NCBI GenBank assembly: GCA_045634865.1
Contig: JAZRBB010000002.1
Coordinates: 197,162 to 261,161, forward strand
Source of the DNA: Candidatus Enterousia sp.
GTDB taxonomy: Bacteria; Pseudomonadota; Alphaproteobacteria; Rs-D84
Direction: 5' to 3'
DNA: 64,000 nt
Shown here piece by piece: positions 9,588 through 64,000 of this stretch. The translations under genes and the position numbers were made by a program. Positions within the stretch are counted from its first letter, which is position 1. Each line of letters starts with the position of its first letter. The notes below the pieces were generated by a model. The model did not search any database. It was not told the origin of the DNA and worked only from the letters and a program-made list of their open reading frames with translations.

Positions 9588-11508
9588 ATTCTTCATAATC
9601 ATAAAAATATTCTTCATCAGATTCTTCTACAAAACCGGCAGGTTCTTGATAATCTTGCTCTGACACAACCATATCATCATTTTTAGAACCAACATCATAT
9701 ACTGGTTTATTTACAGTAATTTCCTCTACATTTTCTTCCACAGGTTCCTCTTCAACAAAATCACCCGATGTCATAACCTGGGCAGGCACAGAATCCATTA
9801 TCACTGGCTCTGCTGGTTCCTCTTGGACATCTTCTGCAATTGGTTCGGCAGTTTCTTCAACTGTTTCTTCTGGCACAGGTTCAGCCACCACAGACTCTGT
9901 CTCTGCAGGTTCTGTCTCTTCTTCTACAAAAACGAATTCTTCTGGTTCAGTCTCTTTTTCTTTACTAACCTGGACAGGTTCAGTTGTTTCTTCTGGAATA
10001 ACTATTTCTTCTTGGGCGTTTTCAACGGGTTGTTCGTCAACAACTTTCTCTTCAACCACAGCAGCCAATAATGGTTTAGTTTTACCAACATGTTTCTGAT
10101 ATAGCCACAAAGTAAACACCGATAAAATAATCAAAACGACCAACAATAAATAATATACGAAAGTCGGTTTGGAACGATTGGTTTGTTCAGAAACAGATAT
10201 ATTAGTAGAACTAATCGGTGGAACAACTGGCGGAACAGGCATCACAGGCTGTGAATATTGTGGTTCATTATTCATAACAGGTTGCGGTTCTAATTTTGGT
10301 TGTTCTGCAACAGGTTCCATATTTTCCGCTGGTACCATTGATTCTAATACAGGTTTCGGTTCTGATACTGTCGGCAAAATTTCTTCATCATGAACAGGCA
10401 CCATAGATTCCAAAACAGGTTTTGGTTCTTCCAGATGTGGCGTGAACATTGGTGTTTCTGTTTCAATTTCAGGCACAGTCTCTGAAATACTTTCCGAATC
10501 GAATACCGGCTCCTTTTCTTCTGGCGCTGAAATATTCAACGACGGCGCATCAAAAGTGATCGGCTTGAAAGCAATATCTTCATTTAATATTTCTGGGTCT
10601 TTATCAAACAGCGGTTTAATATCACTATCTGCGTTTGCATCTTCGTCATCATCATCAATTTCTTCTTCAATCTCTTCATCATCATCAAAATCATCATCTT
10701 CCAATTCGTCTTCATCCGGTTCAATCTTTTGTATTTCATGCTTTGGTGCAACCATAACAGATTTTGATGTTTTCGGACTTTGTTGTATTTCCAGCGCAGG
10801 CTGATTTAATAAATCGCTGGCCAGTTCTGCATCAACTGTGGCAACCTCTAACCGTTTCTGTGCAGAATCCAGCCTTTTCTTGGCGCGTTTCAGTTTTTCA
10901 TTTGTTGCATCAATCTGAGATTCCACTTTCAGAATCTTGGATGCAGATTGTTTGGTCGGAACCTTTCCAATTTCTTTCTTTTGCGCAGATAATTTTGCAC
11001 GCAAAGTTTTAACACGTTCCTGCAAGCGAACAATTGTTTCTTTGGTTTTTACAATCGTGATATTAGTTTTTGCAATAGTTTCATTCGCAACATTAAGGCG
11101 AATCATCGCACTATGGCGCGCAGCAGAATCACGTAAAATATTCAACTGATTCAAATGTTCAGACAAATCATCACCAGCAATATACGCATCGATAAGATTT
11201 TCATATACAGACAAACCGGAATATTCGATATCAAGTTTTTGATATTTATTATCTTGCTTTGGACGAATCGTTTCCAGATCAACATCATATTCCCCAGAAA
11301 GTATTTCATCCCATTTTTTATCGCCCATTGGGTTTATAACTAATAACACATTAGGTTTGTTCTGATTGATAGTGTTATCCAACACAAACACCAAATCATC
11401 AGAATCATCATAGAAAGCATTGATTGCATTACCATCTATGTTATACGAACGCATATTCAATGTTCCGTATTCTGTTTCATTCACTATATCTTCTCTCTCG
11501 CCTATCAT
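9586..11508 (-). CDS. Hypothetical large acidic single-pass membrane protein (coiled coil, Asp/Glu-rich and Pro-rich segments, one transmembrane helix)
   Basis: 640-aa ORF directly downstream of gcrA on the same strand. Coiled-coil region ~aa 150-230, acidic stretch EDELEDDDFDDDEEIEEEIDDDDED, duplicated PKPVLESMVP, transmembrane segment FVYYLLLVVLIILSVFTLWLY. No recognisable enzymatic motif. Confidence 0.55.
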   Translation of the reverse strand: MIGEREDIVNETEYGTLNMRSYNIDGNAINAFYDDSDDLVFVLDNTINQNKPNVLLVINPMGDKKWDEILSGEYDVDLETIRPKQDNKYQKLDIEYSGLSVYENLIDAYIAGDDLSEHLNQLNILRDSAARHSAMIRLNVANETIAKTNITIVKTKETIVRLQERVKTLRAKLSAQKKEIGKVPTKQSASKILKVESQIDATNEKLKRAKKRLDSAQKRLEVATVDAELASDLLNQPALEIQQSPKTSKSVMVAPKHEIQKIEPDEDELEDDDFDDDEEIEEEIDDDDEDANADSDIKPLFDKDPEILNEDIAFKPITFDAPSLNISAPEEKEPVFDSESISETVPEIETETPMFTPHLEEPKPVLESMVPVHDEEILPTVSEPKPVLESMVPAENMEPVAEQPKLEPQPVMNNEPQYSQPVMPVPPVVPPISSTNISVSEQTNRSKPTFVYYLLLVVLIILSVFTLWLYQKHVGKTKPLLAAVVEEKVVDEQPVENAQEEIVIPEETTEPVQVSKEKETEPEEFVFVEEETEPAETESVVAEPVPEETVEETAEPIAEDVQEEPAEPVIMDSVPAQVMTSGDFVEEEPVEENVEEITVNKPVYDVGSKNDDMVVSEQDYQEPAGFVEESDEEYFYDYEE

Positions 11509-15366: not shown

Positions 15367-15443
15367 TGGTGGATGTGGGCGGACTCGAACCGCCGACCCC
15401 TACGATGTGAACGTAGTGCTCTAACCAACTGAGCCACACATCC
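15367..15443 (-). tRNA. tRNA-Val (anticodon CAC)
   Basis: Reverse complement GGATGTGTGGCTCAGTTGGTTAGAGCACTACGTTCACATCGTAGGGGTCGGCGGTTCGAGTCCGCCCACATCCACCA. Cloverleaf with anticodon loop TTCACAT. Confidence 0.85.
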
Positions 15444-15602
15444 AAAAACCTAATAAAAAACCGCGTTTTGCGGTTATAATGCTTTTGTCCGTATTCGCTA
15501 TCGCTACGGCGAGACACTCAATTTTCTTAATTGTGCGCTTGTAATCACCCACAAAATTTTTTAATTTTGCGGGGCCCGAAGCGCGCGCAATAACGAAAAT
15601 CG

Positions 15603-15690
15603 GTGGTGGGGATAGTGGGACTTGAACCCACACGGTTGCAATAACCAAAGGATTTTAAGTCCTCAGCGTGTACCATTCCGCCATATCCCC
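15603..15690 (-). tRNA. tRNA-Leu (anticodon TAA), long variable arm
   Basis: Reverse complement GGGGATATGGCGGAATGGTA...GAGGACTTAAAATCCTT...GGGTTCAAGTCCCACTATCCCCACCA. Confidence 0.8.
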
Positions 15691-15741
15691 AGGACTTTTT
15701 TACACCCATTTGCCCTCAGAATACCTCTGATACAAAAAGGG

Positions 15742-15817
15742 TGGTGGAGCTGATGAGATTCGAACTCACGACCTCTGCATTGCGAACGCAGCGCTCTACC
15801 AACTGAGCTACAACCCC
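15742..15817 (-). tRNA. tRNA-Ala (anticodon CGC)
   Basis: Reverse complement GGGGTTGTAGCTCAGTTGGTAGAGCGCTGCGTTCGCAATGCAGAGGTCGTGAGTTCGAATCTCATCAGCTCCACCA. G3:U70 identity pair present. Confidence 0.85.
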
Positions 15818-15841
15818 ATGCTTCACATGCTTACAAACACA

Positions 15842-15928
15842 TGGTGGGCATAAGAAGACTCGAACTTCCAAGGTATTGCTACCACTAGTACCTGAAACTA
15901 GCGCGTCTACCAATTCCGCCATATGCCC
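15842..15928 (-). tRNA. tRNA-Leu (anticodon CAG), long variable arm
   Basis: Reverse complement GGGCATATGGCGGAATTGGTAGACGCGCTAGTTTCAGGTACTAGTGGTAGCAATACC..GGAAGTTCGAGTCTTCTTATGCCCACCA. Confidence 0.8.
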
Positions 15929-60025: not shown

Positions 60026-60529
60026 CTAGCGGTTTATTATTCCACCCTTTTGTAACACTATTCGCAAAGGTTTTTTAATATAACGCGCATCATAGTCGTA
60101 AATATTTCTTAAAATTTCCGCTGCTTTACCATATGCTTCGACAGCTTTCTTTTCGTTTTTCTTTAATGTACTAAAACTCCAATCTTGTCCGCAATCTTCT
60201 TCAACAGCATACAAATGTCCAATTTTACCAGGCATATAAAAGAATTTTGCAAAATCAGAAAAGTAATACGATTTAAGATGTTTACCATGATTATACAAGC
60301 TGACTTTTTCAGGAAATACTTTGATTACTTGTTGTCCCACAATTTTATAGTTCGCCCTTGCCACCTTAAAAGAAATACCATGAAAACGACCATCTTTGTC
60401 CAATTCAGAAATTGAACCACCAGAAGTTACTTCATAAAACTGCTTGTCGCCATCATCCGCTAAGAAATAACGTGTTTCATACCAATAACCATCGGTCGAA
60501 AAACTCTTTTGTGCCATTTTATATTGCAT
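60026..60529 (-). CDS. Hypothetical protein (167 aa)
   Basis: ORF with no recognised motif. Confidence 0.45.
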   Translation of the reverse strand: MQYKMAQKSFSTDGYWYETRYFLADDGDKQFYEVTSGGSISELDKDGRFHGISFKVARANYKIVGQQVIKVFPEKVSLYNHGKHLKSYYFSDFAKFFYMPGKIGHLYAVEEDCGQDWSFSTLKKNEKKAVEAYGKAAEILRNIYDYDARYIKKPLRIVLQKGGIINR

Positions 60530-60551
60530 TTGTTAATACCTTTCTTGTTTA

Positions 60552-61310
60552 TTATAAAATCACATTTCCATCAATACGTGCATCACTTGGAATTGGACCA
60601 AATGAAGAACGTGGGGAAACATAAATATTACCCTGGACAGTAAATTTACCACAGAAACTTAATTTTTCAACATTGCGAACAAATAAATTGCCACGAATCT
60701 TTGCATCACAAGGCAAAGTATATTTACGCATATTTTGGATAAACAAATTACCATCAATCTTTACACCATTTGATAAAACTGGCGCAGATGGGTACATATC
60801 AACAATAACATCACCCATTAATCTTTGCTTTGGCAAAACTTGTGCCGGCAAAGAAATTTCCTTTACAACCACAGGCTTTTTAACACCGACTGTTTTAATT
60901 TGTGGTTTGATACCTGTTTCGGCACTTACTTTCAATGGCAAGGCTGTATTTATTTTGTACTTACGTTTAACAACTTTGCGATTATCCTGCTTTGCTGAAT
61001 TTGTTTTGGCAACAACAACACTTTTATTTGTTTTTGCAACCGTATCCACAGAATTATTATCATATCTGGTAAAATTGTGAATCAGACCTGTAAATAAAAC
61101 GATTATAGCGACCAACAAAGTCAAATTCACCATACCAACGATATCAATACTCTTTACCCAATTCCAGATTGCTTTGCATATACGGCAAATAAAACGCCAT
61201 GCTTTTTTACACAATTCCCAAGGGAACGAAACAACGCGTTTCAACCATTGTTTAATATTGCGCTTGCGCGTATTACGTGCAGCAGTTTTCATTTTTTGTG
61301 TTTTATTCAT
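60552..61310 (-). CDS. Hypothetical membrane-anchored protein with C-terminal ~20-aa [KR]I[DRQ]GN[LIV][FY][IV] repeats
   Basis: Basic N-terminus, one transmembrane helix, Lys/Val-rich linker, then four repeats (KIDGNLFIQ / KIRGNLFVR / VQGNIYVS / RIDGNVIL). Confidence 0.45.
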   Translation of the reverse strand: MNKTQKMKTAARNTRKRNIKQWLKRVVSFPWELCKKAWRFICRICKAIWNWVKSIDIVGMVNLTLLVAIIVLFTGLIHNFTRYDNNSVDTVAKTNKSVVVAKTNSAKQDNRKVVKRKYKINTALPLKVSAETGIKPQIKTVGVKKPVVVKEISLPAQVLPKQRLMGDVIVDMYPSAPVLSNGVKIDGNLFIQNMRKYTLPCDAKIRGNLFVRNVEKLSFCGKFTVQGNIYVSPRSSFGPIPSDARIDGNVIL

Positions 61311-61409
61311 ATCAAATCCTTTTGTTATGTTTGCATATAATATAGACTATTTATAACATTTGTCAAGAGATTTGTCAAAAAAAATATTAGAGCGCTATAA
61401 AAAAACGCC

Positions 61410-62450
61410 CTATTTTTTAGATTTTTGGGAAAAACGTTCAATAAAAGCATTCAGTTTGTATTCGTCTTCCAATTCCTGATCTTTCATCATCCCCTTAACA
61501 TCTTCAAGTGTAGCAGCAGCATTCTTTAATTTTATAATACCTTCTTTGAACCCCAAAACAAACATTTGACGCCGTTCTTCAAGATAATCTTCGATAGATT
61601 TTTTATCTATTTTGTCTATATCGTGTGCAAGTTGTGCCTGAAAAGTTCGCAATATATACATTTGCCCGGCACTTAAATTATGCTTTCTGTCACGATCAAA
61701 AGCATTTAAAATGTCCCTGTAAAAACCTGGAAAATATTTATAAAAAGAATCTAAAAATTGTTTAATCGATTGTCTAGAATATTCTTCATTGTAATATATT
61801 CCCACAGGTAATTCAATATTGTATGGATTTTTGACCGAAACAATTTCTGCAGATTTTTCTGGACGCAAAAAAGGCTTAGCCACTTCTACAATCTTATTTA
61901 ATAATTGCGGGGTTAAATCGTAAAAATATATAGTTATCGGATCATGACGACTTTGCCAATGATACAAACCTGACGGTGTTTTATATTGAGCAATATGCTT
62001 TCCCTTATCTTCGTTTACAATGTCATCCAAATGTTCTATCAACCCACTAGCCATATACACATTCAAAGACAAACGCGCCTTTAATGCCTTGTTTCGTTCG
62101 CTCTGAGGTTGATATTCACGATAATACCAGCCGTTTGTTGCCCCATCAGGCAAAGTATCAGCGTTAGTTAATAACTTAACAGATTTATATGGTGCCCTGA
62201 TTCTACTGAAACGTTTGTCTGCGAACTCTCTCACAGAAGTGGTATTGTTTTTTATTCCCGCTTTGGTATAATCAGTCAAAGGATATTCATCACCATCTTT
62301 GACATGCCGTAATTTTTCATATTTTTTATTCAAAACTGTAAATACATTTACATCGTCACCCTTTTCCCAATTTACATCACCAGCAAACTGTTTTAACCAA
62401 TCTTTGAATAACATAAAAACTACCTCTGTATCATAGGATGATTTTAGCAT
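61410..62450 (-). CDS. Hypothetical protein (346 aa)
   Basis: ORF with no recognised motif. Adjacent to the tRNA-Arg locus. Confidence 0.45.
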   Translation of the reverse strand: MLKSSYDTEVVFMLFKDWLKQFAGDVNWEKGDDVNVFTVLNKKYEKLRHVKDGDEYPLTDYTKAGIKNNTTSVREFADKRFSRIRAPYKSVKLLTNADTLPDGATNGWYYREYQPQSERNKALKARLSLNVYMASGLIEHLDDIVNEDKGKHIAQYKTPSGLYHWQSRHDPITIYFYDLTPQLLNKIVEVAKPFLRPEKSAEIVSVKNPYNIELPVGIYYNEEYSRQSIKQFLDSFYKYFPGFYRDILNAFDRDRKHNLSAGQMYILRTFQAQLAHDIDKIDKKSIEDYLEERRQMFVLGFKEGIIKLKNAAATLEDVKGMMKDQELEDEYKLNAFIERFSQKSKK

Positions 62451-62548
62451 ATTATGGGTTATAAAACAAACAAAATCGGGATAAAAAAGTCAACAAACAA
62501 AAATTAAAAGTTGCAATCGTAGGGTTTATGATATAAAATCTGGGACAT

Positions 62549-62589
62549 GCGCCCATGGCTCAATTGGATAGAGCAACAGATTTCTAATC
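62549..62589 (+). pseudogene. Duplicated 5' half of tRNA-Arg(TCT) (acceptor 5' strand, D arm, anticodon loop), not a complete tRNA
   Basis: gcgcccatggctcaattggatagagcaacagatttctaatc matches the 5' part of the intact tRNA at 62793 (gtgcccatggctcaactggatagagcaattgccttctaagc). No matching 3' half follows. Confidence 0.6.
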
Positions 62590-62792
62590 ATCCGTAATTT
62601 TTATGGATAGATTTGGATCTGAATGCATAAACGCCTGATTTGTGCGGATGTGCGCGAAAATCAGTTCTGTATAAAACTGGATACAGATTGATTGAAATGT
62701 ACGCAAATGGATGTAAAATGTTACATATTTGCTACATAGAATGTTACACAGGAATTGGACGATATATGCGTTGAATTCCGCAAAGCAGTTAA

Positions 62793-62869
62793 GTGCCCAT
62801 GGCTCAACTGGATAGAGCAATTGCCTTCTAAGCAATAGGTTGCAGGTTCGAATCCTGCTGGGCACGCCA
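62793..62869 (+). tRNA. tRNA-Arg (anticodon TCT)
   Basis: GTGCCCATGGCTCAACTGGATAGAGCAATTGCCTTCTAAGCAATAGGTTGCAGGTTCGAATCCTGCTGGGCACGCCA. Good cloverleaf. Confidence 0.85.
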
Positions 62870-63200
62870 GATATAAAAGCCCCGAAACTTCGGGGCTTTT
62901 TAAGTTCGAAAGTTTATAAAACACGAATCGTTAAGCATAAAATGCTATTGATTTTTTCGTCAATTTGTGGTATAATTGCAGACAAGGATGAGGGAGAATT
63001 TTATATTCCTTTGCTTGACTTGTAACGTTTCTTGTGCCAAAGTGCAAACAGATATAAGGGTAAACCTATGAAAGATATGCGTAATAATTTTGGTGTTAAG
63101 GGTGTTAGTACACCTGATGCAAGTTTTTTCAGTAATCTGAAAAAGCCTGTTGATGCTACAATGGTTAAACGCGCACAGAATATATTTAGGGGCATAGAGA

Positions 63201-63752
63201 ATGTTAAAGTTTGTCGCGTGGATGCCCAATAACTCTATTCCAGAGTTTGAATGTAAAGATTCTCAGATCAACAGATATTACAAAGAACAATTACAAACAG
63301 ACATAGATGTGCGTGCCTGTAAAGCGTATTTTTTGTTTCAAGATGATAATGTCGTCGGCTTTTTCACGTTATTACCGCATTCCATAAAAAATACGAATAA
63401 TCATAGTATCCGTAAAAGAAAATTTAAGGGTATGGGCAAATGGTTGTCGGGTGTGTTACTGGGGCATTTTGCAATAGATAACAAATTTTGCAGCCAGCAA
63501 CATATGAGCGGACTGAAATACAGTAGAATATTGATGTTATATGCATTGAGAATGTTTGAACACGTTGTTCGCAATTTTTGTGGTGTGGCTTTATTATTAA
63601 ATCCAATAAATGAAAGTGTCCGTGATAAATTTTACATAAAAGAATATGGTGGTTTATTTGAAAAGTATCCCACCAATGACGATTATATGTATGCACGTAC
63701 AGTTGATGTATTGGCTGTGTTAGATAAATGGTGGCCAGATCGTAATAAATAA
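63201..63752 (+). CDS. GNAT-family acetyltransferase-like protein (possible island cargo or toxin)
   Basis: YFLFQDDNVVGFFTL...LLGHFAIDNKFCSQQHMSGL...ALLLNPINESVRDKFYIKEYGG follows the GNAT beta4-alphaC-beta5 pattern. Confidence 0.4.
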   Translation: MLKFVAWMPNNSIPEFECKDSQINRYYKEQLQTDIDVRACKAYFLFQDDNVVGFFTLLPHSIKNTNNHSIRKRKFKGMGKWLSGVLLGHFAIDNKFCSQQHMSGLKYSRILMLYALRMFEHVVRNFCGVALLLNPINESVRDKFYIKEYGGLFEKYPTNDDYMYARTVDVLAVLDKWWPDRNK

Positions 63753-63790
63753 TCAGTCGCCGTTAGCGTGTAAAACATAACTCTATTAAA

Positions 63791-64000
63791 TTATCCCGTT
63801 ATCATGCTTGCGACATTGTTTGCGGTGCGACGTGCGGCGATGCTTGATGCGTGCGCATATATTTCTGTTGTGGTGATTTTGGTGTGTCCCAGTACGTCTT
63901 TTAATATTCTTATATCTTCGCCCATGCTGGTTGCCAGTGTTGCAAAGGAATGACGCAAGTCGTGTATGCGCATACGTGGCAATTCGGCACGGTCCAATGC
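63791..64000 (-). CDS. Tyrosine recombinase/phage-type integrase, C-terminal end (gene continues beyond the window)
   Basis: ...MRIHDLRHSFATLATSMGEDIRILKDVLGHTKITTTEIYAH is the catalytic R..H...LGH....T..Y box II with the tyrosine. Confidence 0.75.
   Translation of the reverse strand, partial: ALDRAELPRMRIHDLRHSFATLATSMGEDIRILKDVLGHTKITTTEIYAHASSIAARRTANNVASMITG

Follow-up and report, generated by a model that had tools for sequence, protein, structure and literature searches.

Why should half of a tRNA-Arg gene lie a short way ahead of a complete one, with the gene of a phage-type integrase close by? The question is raised by positions 62549-64000 of a stretch of 64,000 nucleotides from Candidatus Enterousia sp. 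(contig JAZRBB010000002.1, positions 197,162 to 261,161), which as a whole I will refer to as the window. A preliminary description, made from the sequence of the window itself, took the half gene for a duplicate of the complete one and the region for a probable genomic-island boundary. The region is the left end (attL) of an integrative mobile element, and very probably this element splits the tRNA-Arg(UCU) gene of its host within the anticodon loop, leaves it unrepaired, and carries a complete tRNA-Arg(UCU) gene of its own. Of the element, the window includes attL and no more than the initial 1.4 kb. The right end (attR), the empty attachment site (attB) and the size of the element are all derived from sibling contigs in other host strains, designated below by L and a number.

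The two tRNA-Arg sequences

The complete gene, recognized already in the preliminary description, is confirmed by both programs named in Table 1 and is the single tRNA that ARAGORN calls near the end of the window. Its cloverleaf is also its minimum-free-energy fold, with an anticodon stem ATTGC/GCAAT and a loop CTTCTAA, and its sequence is identical in 12 sources and changed in 3 others by one G-C to G-U substitution. The intrinsic terminator hairpin that follows it was read from the sequence; it is aligned as a stem in the Rfam output and is not listed by the consensus scanner.

At the half gene (62549-62589) ARAGORN makes no call, and the Rfam tRNA model applied to it and the sequence that follows (62549-62627) yields 16.9 bits (E = 2), the gathering score being 29. 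I considered whether this extension of the match might reflect a decayed 3' half lying just beyond the anticodon loop and rejected the idea, as neither a T arm nor a complement to the acceptor strand can be seen there. The half gene matches the first 41 nucleotides of the complete tRNA at 34 positions. The acceptor and D arms are nearly identical, and a 25-nt pattern drawn from this shared part occurs exactly twice in the 64-kb window, where 100 shuffles give an expectation of 0. The mismatches are concentrated in the anticodon stem (ACAGA vs ATTGC) and at loop position 32. Because it is there that the two differ, the fragment is part of a different tRNA-Arg(UCU) gene and not a copy of its neighbor. 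The preliminary description was therefore right that a 5' half is present and mistaken in calling it a duplication: by its sequence it is a truncated, non-functional left remnant of the host's own tRNA-Arg gene. I will call it the stump; it constitutes the B arm and core of attL.

The stump is preceded by a promoter-like site (Table 1), and in two contigs that lack the element, L036 and L029 (the latter from assembly GCA_017543505.1), the intact host tRNA gene has an equivalent stretch, TTG...TATAAT, ahead of it. If the site does serve as the promoter of the host gene, then after integration it would point into the element.

The ends of the element and its empty site

The protein of 183 amino acids encoded downstream of the complete tRNA is present, exact in sequence, on 14 public metagenome contigs, and across all of them blastn gives an identity of 95.6-98% for the block between about 62545/62585 and 64000. 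The left flanks differ: they run ClpX...MscS in L001, L006 and L007, Dus-TspO in L008, and consist of other sequence in L010. The flank of L004 is syntenic with that of the window at a DNA identity of 72-77%. Two flank genes, one of 83 amino acids (59669-59920) and one of 252, have syntenic orthologues there that are 67% and 51% identical at the amino acid level, adjoining an element that is 98% identical; the window's flank genes of 167 and 334 amino acids are not conserved at L004.

Alignment of the junctions gives the position of the boundary. There are two host-specific tRNA 5' halves, GCGCCCATGGCTCAATTGGATAGAGCAACAGA... and GCGCCCGTAGCACAATGGATAATGCAACAGA..., and both join, at ...TTTCTAATC, the identical element sequence ATCCGTAATTTTTATGG... 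The sequence of the stump thus varies with the host and the element side is constant. Since host-specific 5' halves fuse to one element sequence, the boundary lies in the anticodon loop and the intact tRNA gene lies within the mobile block, beginning 203 bp inside attL. A genomic-island boundary at tRNA-Arg(UCU), as foreseen by the preliminary description, is borne out by a block that moves across unrelated left flanks, and so is its suggestion of an integrase that targets the anticodon loop, for the crossover core GATTTCTAATC spans that loop. The three genes at 60026-62450, which it thought might also be island-associated, fall outside this element, given a boundary at 62579-62589 and left flanks that differ between hosts. 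Base composition, proposed as a check, gives no contrast within the window (38.2% GC in host DNA vs 38.0% in the element); in L017 the figures are 43% for the host and 36.8% for the element.

Contigs with whole copies of the element were reached by way of a 310-aa protein that it encodes. L017 has a complete element in one host species, with attL and attR separated by 12,243 bp, and thereby provides the distal att repeat that the preliminary description had wished to see sought. In L017, L018 and L021, attR reads ...GGGTTCAGACG-ATTTCTAA-TCTGTGGATTGCAGGTTCGAGTCCTGCCGGGCGTGCCA, the 3' half of a tRNA preceded by an arm of non-tRNA sequence. The copy in L017 is the sole one seen whole, and other variants are larger.

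Empty sites were sought with the flanking MscS protein. The element-free contigs so found, of the same species (MscS 99-100% identical), contain an intact tRNA-Arg(tct) gene of 76 nt, GCGCCCGTAGCACAATGGATAATGCAACAGATTTCTAATCTGTGGATTGCAGGTTCGAGTCCTGCCGGGCGTGCCA, between MscS and TspO, exactly at the position of integration. This gene is contiguous with the sequence of the stump and has the stem ACAGA/TCTGT. The flanks of occupied sites align with the empty site in L028 up to base 11008 and resume at base 11009, at 96-99% identity. L036 (empty) and L034 (occupied) provide a like pair from a second host species. Relatives without the element therefore have an intact tRNA-Arg gene at the same site, and it is not the case that the related genomes are collinear with no insertion, the outcome that would have told against an island. 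As for the host in the window, three of its proteins are absent from the contig collection, and one contig scan turned up a single 3.6-kb contig from a metagenome-assembled genome (Alphaproteobacteria UBA1218, 55% amino acid identity), with no tRNA on it.

The sequence common to attB, attL, attR and a reconstructed attP is the 11-bp core and nothing more, and its 7-nt anticodon loop, TTTCTAA, is the probable region of strand exchange. Since attP and attB share only these 11 bp, neither junction regains a whole tRNA; in every locus the element's own gene is the one that ARAGORN calls, and both attL and attR go without a call.

A different junction occurs in L002 (3290-3345) and also in L003 and L005, where the same P' arm is joined to ...CGCCGAGACACTGAA-TTTTCTAA and not to the tRNA-Arg stump. 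The sequence to the left of this junction continues unbroken in L011 (10855-10953) and L012 (858-955) into a long hairpin beside tRNA-Met, in which a complementarity of 9 bp spans the site. The junction is, judging by these alignments, probably a secondary attB that shares with the core only the 7-bp TTTCTAA. I also considered the left flank in these three contigs as a P arm, belonging to attP or to a tandem junction, and rejected this since the true attR has a different arm.

Relative to TspO-Dus, the tRNA-Arg gene of L008 (1-2000) and its promoter point the other way from those of L029 and L036. The contig represents a third host species (flank identity 75-79%), and the inversion looks like an ordinary rearrangement between species and not an effect of the element.

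Table 1. Features at the right-hand end of the window, in order of position.
Feature	Position	Strand or orientation	Basis or remark
Host tRNA-Arg promoter-like site, TTGCAA-17-TAAAAT	62511-62539	+	Consensus scan; 10 nt upstream of the stump
Host tRNA-Arg(UCU) 5' half (stump)	62549-62589	+	Acceptor arm, D arm, stem ACAGA, loop TTTCTAA, then TC
Common core GATTTCTAATC (11 bp)	62579-62589	+	attB, attL, attR and reconstructed attP; junction alignment
P' arm (203 bp)	62590-62792	+	~96-98% identical in all element copies, whatever the host flank
Promoter-like site in P' arm, TTGAAA-16-TAAAAT	62692-62719		Promoter scan; upstream of element tRNA
22-bp repeat ATGTTACATATTTGCTACATAG	62718-62739	direct	In P' arm; second copy in P arm, position -95, of the complete L017 element
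Third ATGTTACA	62741-62748		In P' arm
Element tRNA-Arg(UCU), complete, CCA encoded	62793-62869	+	ARAGORN tRNA-Arg(tct); Rfam tRNA 73.1 bits, E 7e-16
Intrinsic terminator hairpin, GCCCCGA-AACT-TCGGGGC then TTTTT	62879-62901	+	After element tRNA; read from the sequence
Promoter-like site, TTGATT-17-TG-TATAAT	62948-62976	+	Upstream of the 54-aa/183-aa pair; consensus match only
Small open reading frame (66/54 aa)	63032/63068-63232	+	Overlaps start of 183-aa gene by 32 nt
183-aa GNAT-fold protein	63201-63752	+	Homologue of TacT/AtaT/KacT
Tyrosine integrase, C-terminal 69 residues	63791-64000	-	Pfam Phage_integrase E 1.5e-10; gene runs off the window

Proposed mechanism and its alternatives

The integrase whose C-terminus was noted in the preliminary description is indeed one and belongs to the island. 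The part within the window keeps the residues HDLRH...LGH...Y, and in sibling contigs (gene tables of L001, L008, L009 and L010) the protein has its full length of 403-412 amino acids, with the Pfam domains Arm-DNA-bind_3, Phage_int_SAM_3 and Phage_integrase and a match to PHROG_1 integrase (4e-55). Its full-length relatives in IMG/VR are just 26-30% identical. The repeats ATGTTACATATTTGCTACATAG and ATGTTACA are candidate arm-type sites for its arm-binding domain.

From these parts the following course of events may be proposed. The tyrosine integrase, with its arm-binding N-terminal domain, would recombine attP with the host's tRNA-Arg(UCU) gene at its anticodon loop, so that the host's 5' half remains at attL and its 3' half is displaced to attR, beyond the window. 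The element's tRNA would be expressed from its own promoter-like site, possibly with read-through from the orphaned host promoter, and would take over the decoding of AGA, a codon that under the established rules of decoding is read only by tRNA-Arg(UCU). On that account integration would be tolerated, and the element would be hard to lose except by precise excision, which would restore the host gene; any other loss would be deleterious. The element's tRNA lacks the core sequence, because its anticodon stem and loop position 32 (C32) differ from the target, and it should not itself be a target of integration. The adjacent pair of genes, encoding 54 and 183 amino acids, would add a second stabilizing (addiction) function.

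Such a course has precedents. Lysogeny dependent on a tRNA has been established experimentally by Guerrero-Bustamante and Hatfull (mBio 2024; PMC10865867), who define it by a tyrosine integrase with attB in a tRNA gene, a core of 8-17 bp, no rebuilding of the tRNA, and a tRNA of matching isotype supplied by the phage, without which integration is not viable. Their cases are actinobacteriophages (Fionnbharth/K4, Cluster L, Gaia and the Gordonia CQ2/DL phages), the targets in their Table 2 being Lys-TTT, Ile2-CAT and Leu-CAA. They predicted that the phenomenon would be met outside this group and pointed to an earlier in-silico case, Lj965. Three of five features of tRNA-dependent lysogeny are found in the element described here: an integrase with attB in a tRNA gene, no rebuilt tRNA, and a tRNA of its own with the same anticodon. 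The likeness extends to the arm-binding type of the tyrosine integrase, to the short core (11 bp here), to a promoter of the tRNA's own (here a promoter-like site), and to the use of a secondary site, which was reported from experiment for Fionnbharth and is probable here in L002. The differences are that the host is an uncultured alphaproteobacterium and not an actinobacterium, that the target is tRNA-Arg(UCU), and that the replacement tRNA, placed between attL and int, is within the P' arm at a distance of 203 bp from the crossover. Two papers on Sinorhizobium meliloti (PMC11476347, PMC12429752) describe something comparable, again in silico: phage-related sequences that inactivate a tRNA and replace it, and that resemble Mesorhizobium phage vB_MloP_Lo5R7ANS. 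So far as the text of the papers on Lj965 (of Lactobacillus johnsonii) and Sinorhizobium goes, which is the basis of the comparison, integration in both inactivates a tRNA and the element carries a similar isoacceptor, as here, and Sinorhizobium too belongs to the Alphaproteobacteria, whereas the elements concerned are prophage-like and reside in cultured hosts. The arrangement thus matches a known tRNA-dependent mechanism, and the element is a new example of it, with no new principle. Possibly new are the island- or satellite-like carrier, the choice of tRNA-Arg(UCU) as target, and the position of the replacement tRNA in an att arm beside int.

A reader familiar with genomic islands would more readily suppose that the complete tRNA is the host gene, regenerated by the island, and that the upstream half is the relic of an older, decayed integration. 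That is the usual situation for tRNA-associated islands (Islander abstract, PMC4383910), and the integrase does adjoin an intact tRNA. Canonical islands with P4-like integrases (Williams 2002; PMC4383910) are also alike in the composition of the integrase (Arm-DNA-bind_3, SAM-like and catalytic domains), in the location of int next to the tRNA end of the island and in a crossover at a stem-loop of the tRNA. They carry the 3' part of their target in attP and so regenerate the gene, whereas the element carries none of it and both halves are orphaned: the 5' half is at attL, the 3' half at attR, and the arms are not tRNA-like, which departs from the Islander definition. Further, the element takes the intact tRNA and its 203 bp of upstream sequence along to hosts that have a different tRNA-Arg of their own, the gene at the empty site is contiguous with the stump and has the stem ACAGA/TCTGT, not ATTGC/GCAAT, and the host's 3' half is found at the element's far end. 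All this makes regeneration of the host gene very improbable. I give practically no credence to a tRNA pseudogene or partial duplication of local origin that has nothing to do with the integrase, or to a tRNA split by an intron with its 3' exon downstream. It is true that the half tRNA breaks off within the anticodon loop, a site of bacterial group I introns, and that about 244 nt separate this point from the next such loop. Rfam, with E-values up to 10, reports no group I intron or other family besides tRNA in 62300-63300, nor any intron or other RNA family in the P' arm, and the anticodon stem of the stump cannot pair with the 3' strand of the downstream tRNA; on these grounds an intron or split tRNA over 62590-62828 was rejected. 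The comparisons with empty sites, moreover, fully account for the stump.

Splitting without repair, in a host that comes to depend on the replacement, should also be weighed against the same architecture in a host that does not so depend, since it keeps a further tRNA-Arg(UCU) gene or can do without the lost one. The element's tRNA would in that event be ordinary cargo, serving for example to supply a codon or as a decoy against anticodon nucleases. I consider this unlikely. In its favor, tRNA-Arg(UCU) genes are very common in phages (850 records of a phage database matched the tRNA and nothing else of the element), the copy number of the host tRNA-Arg(UCU) is not measurable in the available contigs, and in L002, L003 and L005 the element occupies a junction at which no tRNA is disrupted. 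Set against it are the anticodon of the cargo tRNA, which is that of the gene destroyed, its location inside the att arm in every copy, and the regular use of AGA, which makes up 16% of arginine codons in the host open reading frames of the window (113 of 17,059 codons). Moreover, neither the 64-kb window nor any of the host flanks, 10-20 kb long, showed a further tRNA-Arg(tct). Several points weigh against the reading I favor. The dependence of the host on the element's tRNA is deduced; expression of that tRNA, activity of the integrase, and excision are all predicted from sequence; attR and the empty site were observed in siblings and not in the genome from which the window comes; and the nature of the element, be it a satellite, a defective prophage or a plain island, hinges on one match to a small-terminase-like PHROG family and on the missing structural genes of one 12.2-kb copy.

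If the integration is as I propose, the strategy of disrupting a tRNA gene and bringing one's own, described in 2024 for actinobacteriophages, is found as well in uncultured Alphaproteobacteria, probably in a small non-viral island. Programs that find islands by a regenerated tRNA and a displaced 3' fragment would misplace the boundary of such an element and could take its tRNA for a host gene. One foreign tRNA-Arg allele in several host species with differing alleles of their own would allow a core tRNA to be replaced horizontally and would amount to a form of addiction to an element. A broader reading, possible though doubtful, is that a satellite-like island, not a phage, crosses several species of uncultured Alphaproteobacteria (from rumen or gut metagenomes, to go by record names) and in each swaps the sole tRNA for AGA for one foreign allele, thus becoming effectively unlosable, while a tRNA-acetylating toxin module reinforces this and may itself be linked in function to the tRNA. 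Were it true, this would be the first tRNA-dependent integration outside complete temperate phages and a horizontal replacement of a core gene of translation.

Contents and surroundings of the element

From attL inward, the P' arm, the tRNA and the terminator hairpin are followed by the open reading frame of 54 amino acids, the 183-aa GNAT gene and, on the opposite strand, int. Beyond int come genes for a protein of 76-81 amino acids, for a small-terminase-like protein (phrog_57, 2e-29), for DUF6291, for HTH_17 (excisionase/AlpA-like), and then for proteins of 153, 62 and 310 amino acids. The remaining cargo of L017, up to attR, consists of MFS and ABC transporters, a rhamnosyltransferase, a trypsin-like protein and small open reading frames, and non-phage cargo accounts for more than half of this 12.2-kb copy. 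No genes for capsid, tail or lysis are present in it, which suggests, so far as gene content can tell, an island or phage satellite and not a complete prophage; for an element of 12.2 kb with neither structural nor lysis genes, the word lysogeny may not apply. Satellites of the type of phage-inducible chromosomal islands or P4 are likewise about 12 kb in size and combine int, an HTH_17 (AlpA/excisionase-like) gene and a small-terminase-like gene with an absence of virion genes; they differ in that more than half of the L017 copy is taken up by transporters and the other cargo just listed. Neither a helper phage nor a gene for a primase/replicase or for redirecting capsids was identified, and DUF6291 apart no replication module is recognizable. 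Scanned for exact DNA matches to the P' arm and to the L002 junction, IMG/VR gave none, and blastn of the element against a phage collection gave matches to tRNA-Arg only, so that close relatives are lacking in either collection beyond these tRNA matches and the distant integrases.

The two open reading frames between the tRNA and int, at 63032-63232 and 63201-63752 (183 aa), are present as cargo of the island, as the preliminary description supposed. It called the larger one GNAT-like. Pfam and NCBIfam do not recognize the protein; support comes from PHROG_1758 (acetyltransferase, 5e-13) and from a search of the PDB with a profile built from 11 close relatives, which found GNAT toxins only, the best being TacT3 (6g96, 1e-4), along with AtaT2, AtaT and KacT. 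An AlphaFold 2 model (pLDDT 74) gave the same result with Foldseek: the top 37 matches are all toxins of the TacT/AtaT/KacT/GmvT type (E 5e-8 to 3e-5, TM 0.6-0.78), and other GNATs have TM < 0.5. By profile and modeled fold, then, the protein is a GNAT-fold homologue of the tRNA-acetylating toxins TacT, AtaT and KacT, with an identity to known GNAT toxins of 13-20%. Those toxins acetylate aminoacyl-tRNA.

Its smaller neighbor is called as a gene in all related contigs and is conserved and intact in every copy, even the most diverged (L034), which has 7 substitutions. It has no match in Pfam, PHROG, NCBIfam, PADLOC or the PDB and no detectable similarity to DUF1778/RHH. In TacAT, AtaRT and KacAT, the type II modules to which the pair may be compared, a GNAT of about 175-183 amino acids is preceded by a small overlapping gene, again on a mobile element, and the upstream protein is a DUF1778/RHH antitoxin of about 90 amino acids, not 54. 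The small protein occupies the position of an antitoxin without belonging to a recognized class. The preliminary description's toxin-antitoxin pair is plausible because the larger open reading frame is a homologue of GNAT toxins, and gene order and overlap are consistent with it; an antitoxin-family match for the 54-aa protein is absent.

Other genes of the element may have to do with defense. The trypsin-like protein of 290 amino acids (L017, 882-1751) has weak matches to the LmuA and HamA defense models (1.6e-8 and 2e-5) and may be a further piece of defense cargo. The 310-aa protein has no match in Pfam or PADLOC. Its homologues, rejected as markers of related elements since they lie instead in restriction-modification loci, are found between hsdS and hsdR of type I operons and beside a type IIG enzyme (L001 14416-15348; L025-L027 10001-10984; L014 10001-10933). 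The interval between hsdS and hsdR is the position of PrrC-like abortive-infection genes, and the protein is for that reason a candidate defense gene.

In L002 (4545-11483), and also in L003, L005 and L034, a variant of the element has an insert of 6.8 kb between the GNAT gene and int, corresponding to 63792-63860 of the window. The insert encodes a 266-aa protein, a valine-tRNA ligase of the alternative type (NF000540, 1079 bits), a GT2 glycosyltransferase, a 469-aa protein and an APH-like kinase, and is flanked by direct repeats of 68-69 bp that equal the 3' end of the integrase gene. It has the look of an insertion nested in the element, or of a hotspot of deletion. A valine-tRNA ligase on a mobile element is unusual.

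Outside the element, L002 (100-2900) and the reverse strand of L012 (~1640-2460) contain small strain-variable genes separated by repeats of 81 nt (4 copies, 73-100% identical), which on the + strand encode a conserved peptide tail, WLCxLCNxRxxLxEIGQEI. The layout resembles a cassette array of an unclassified kind. Elsewhere in the window there is a cluster of four tRNA genes on the minus strand (15367-15928; Val-cac, Leu-taa, Ala-cgc and Leu-cag), none of them for tRNA-Arg, and a gene on the plus strand (56657-59230) for a secreted-looking protein of 857 amino acids with about 20 repeats of F..C.GLTG.IP..LF.

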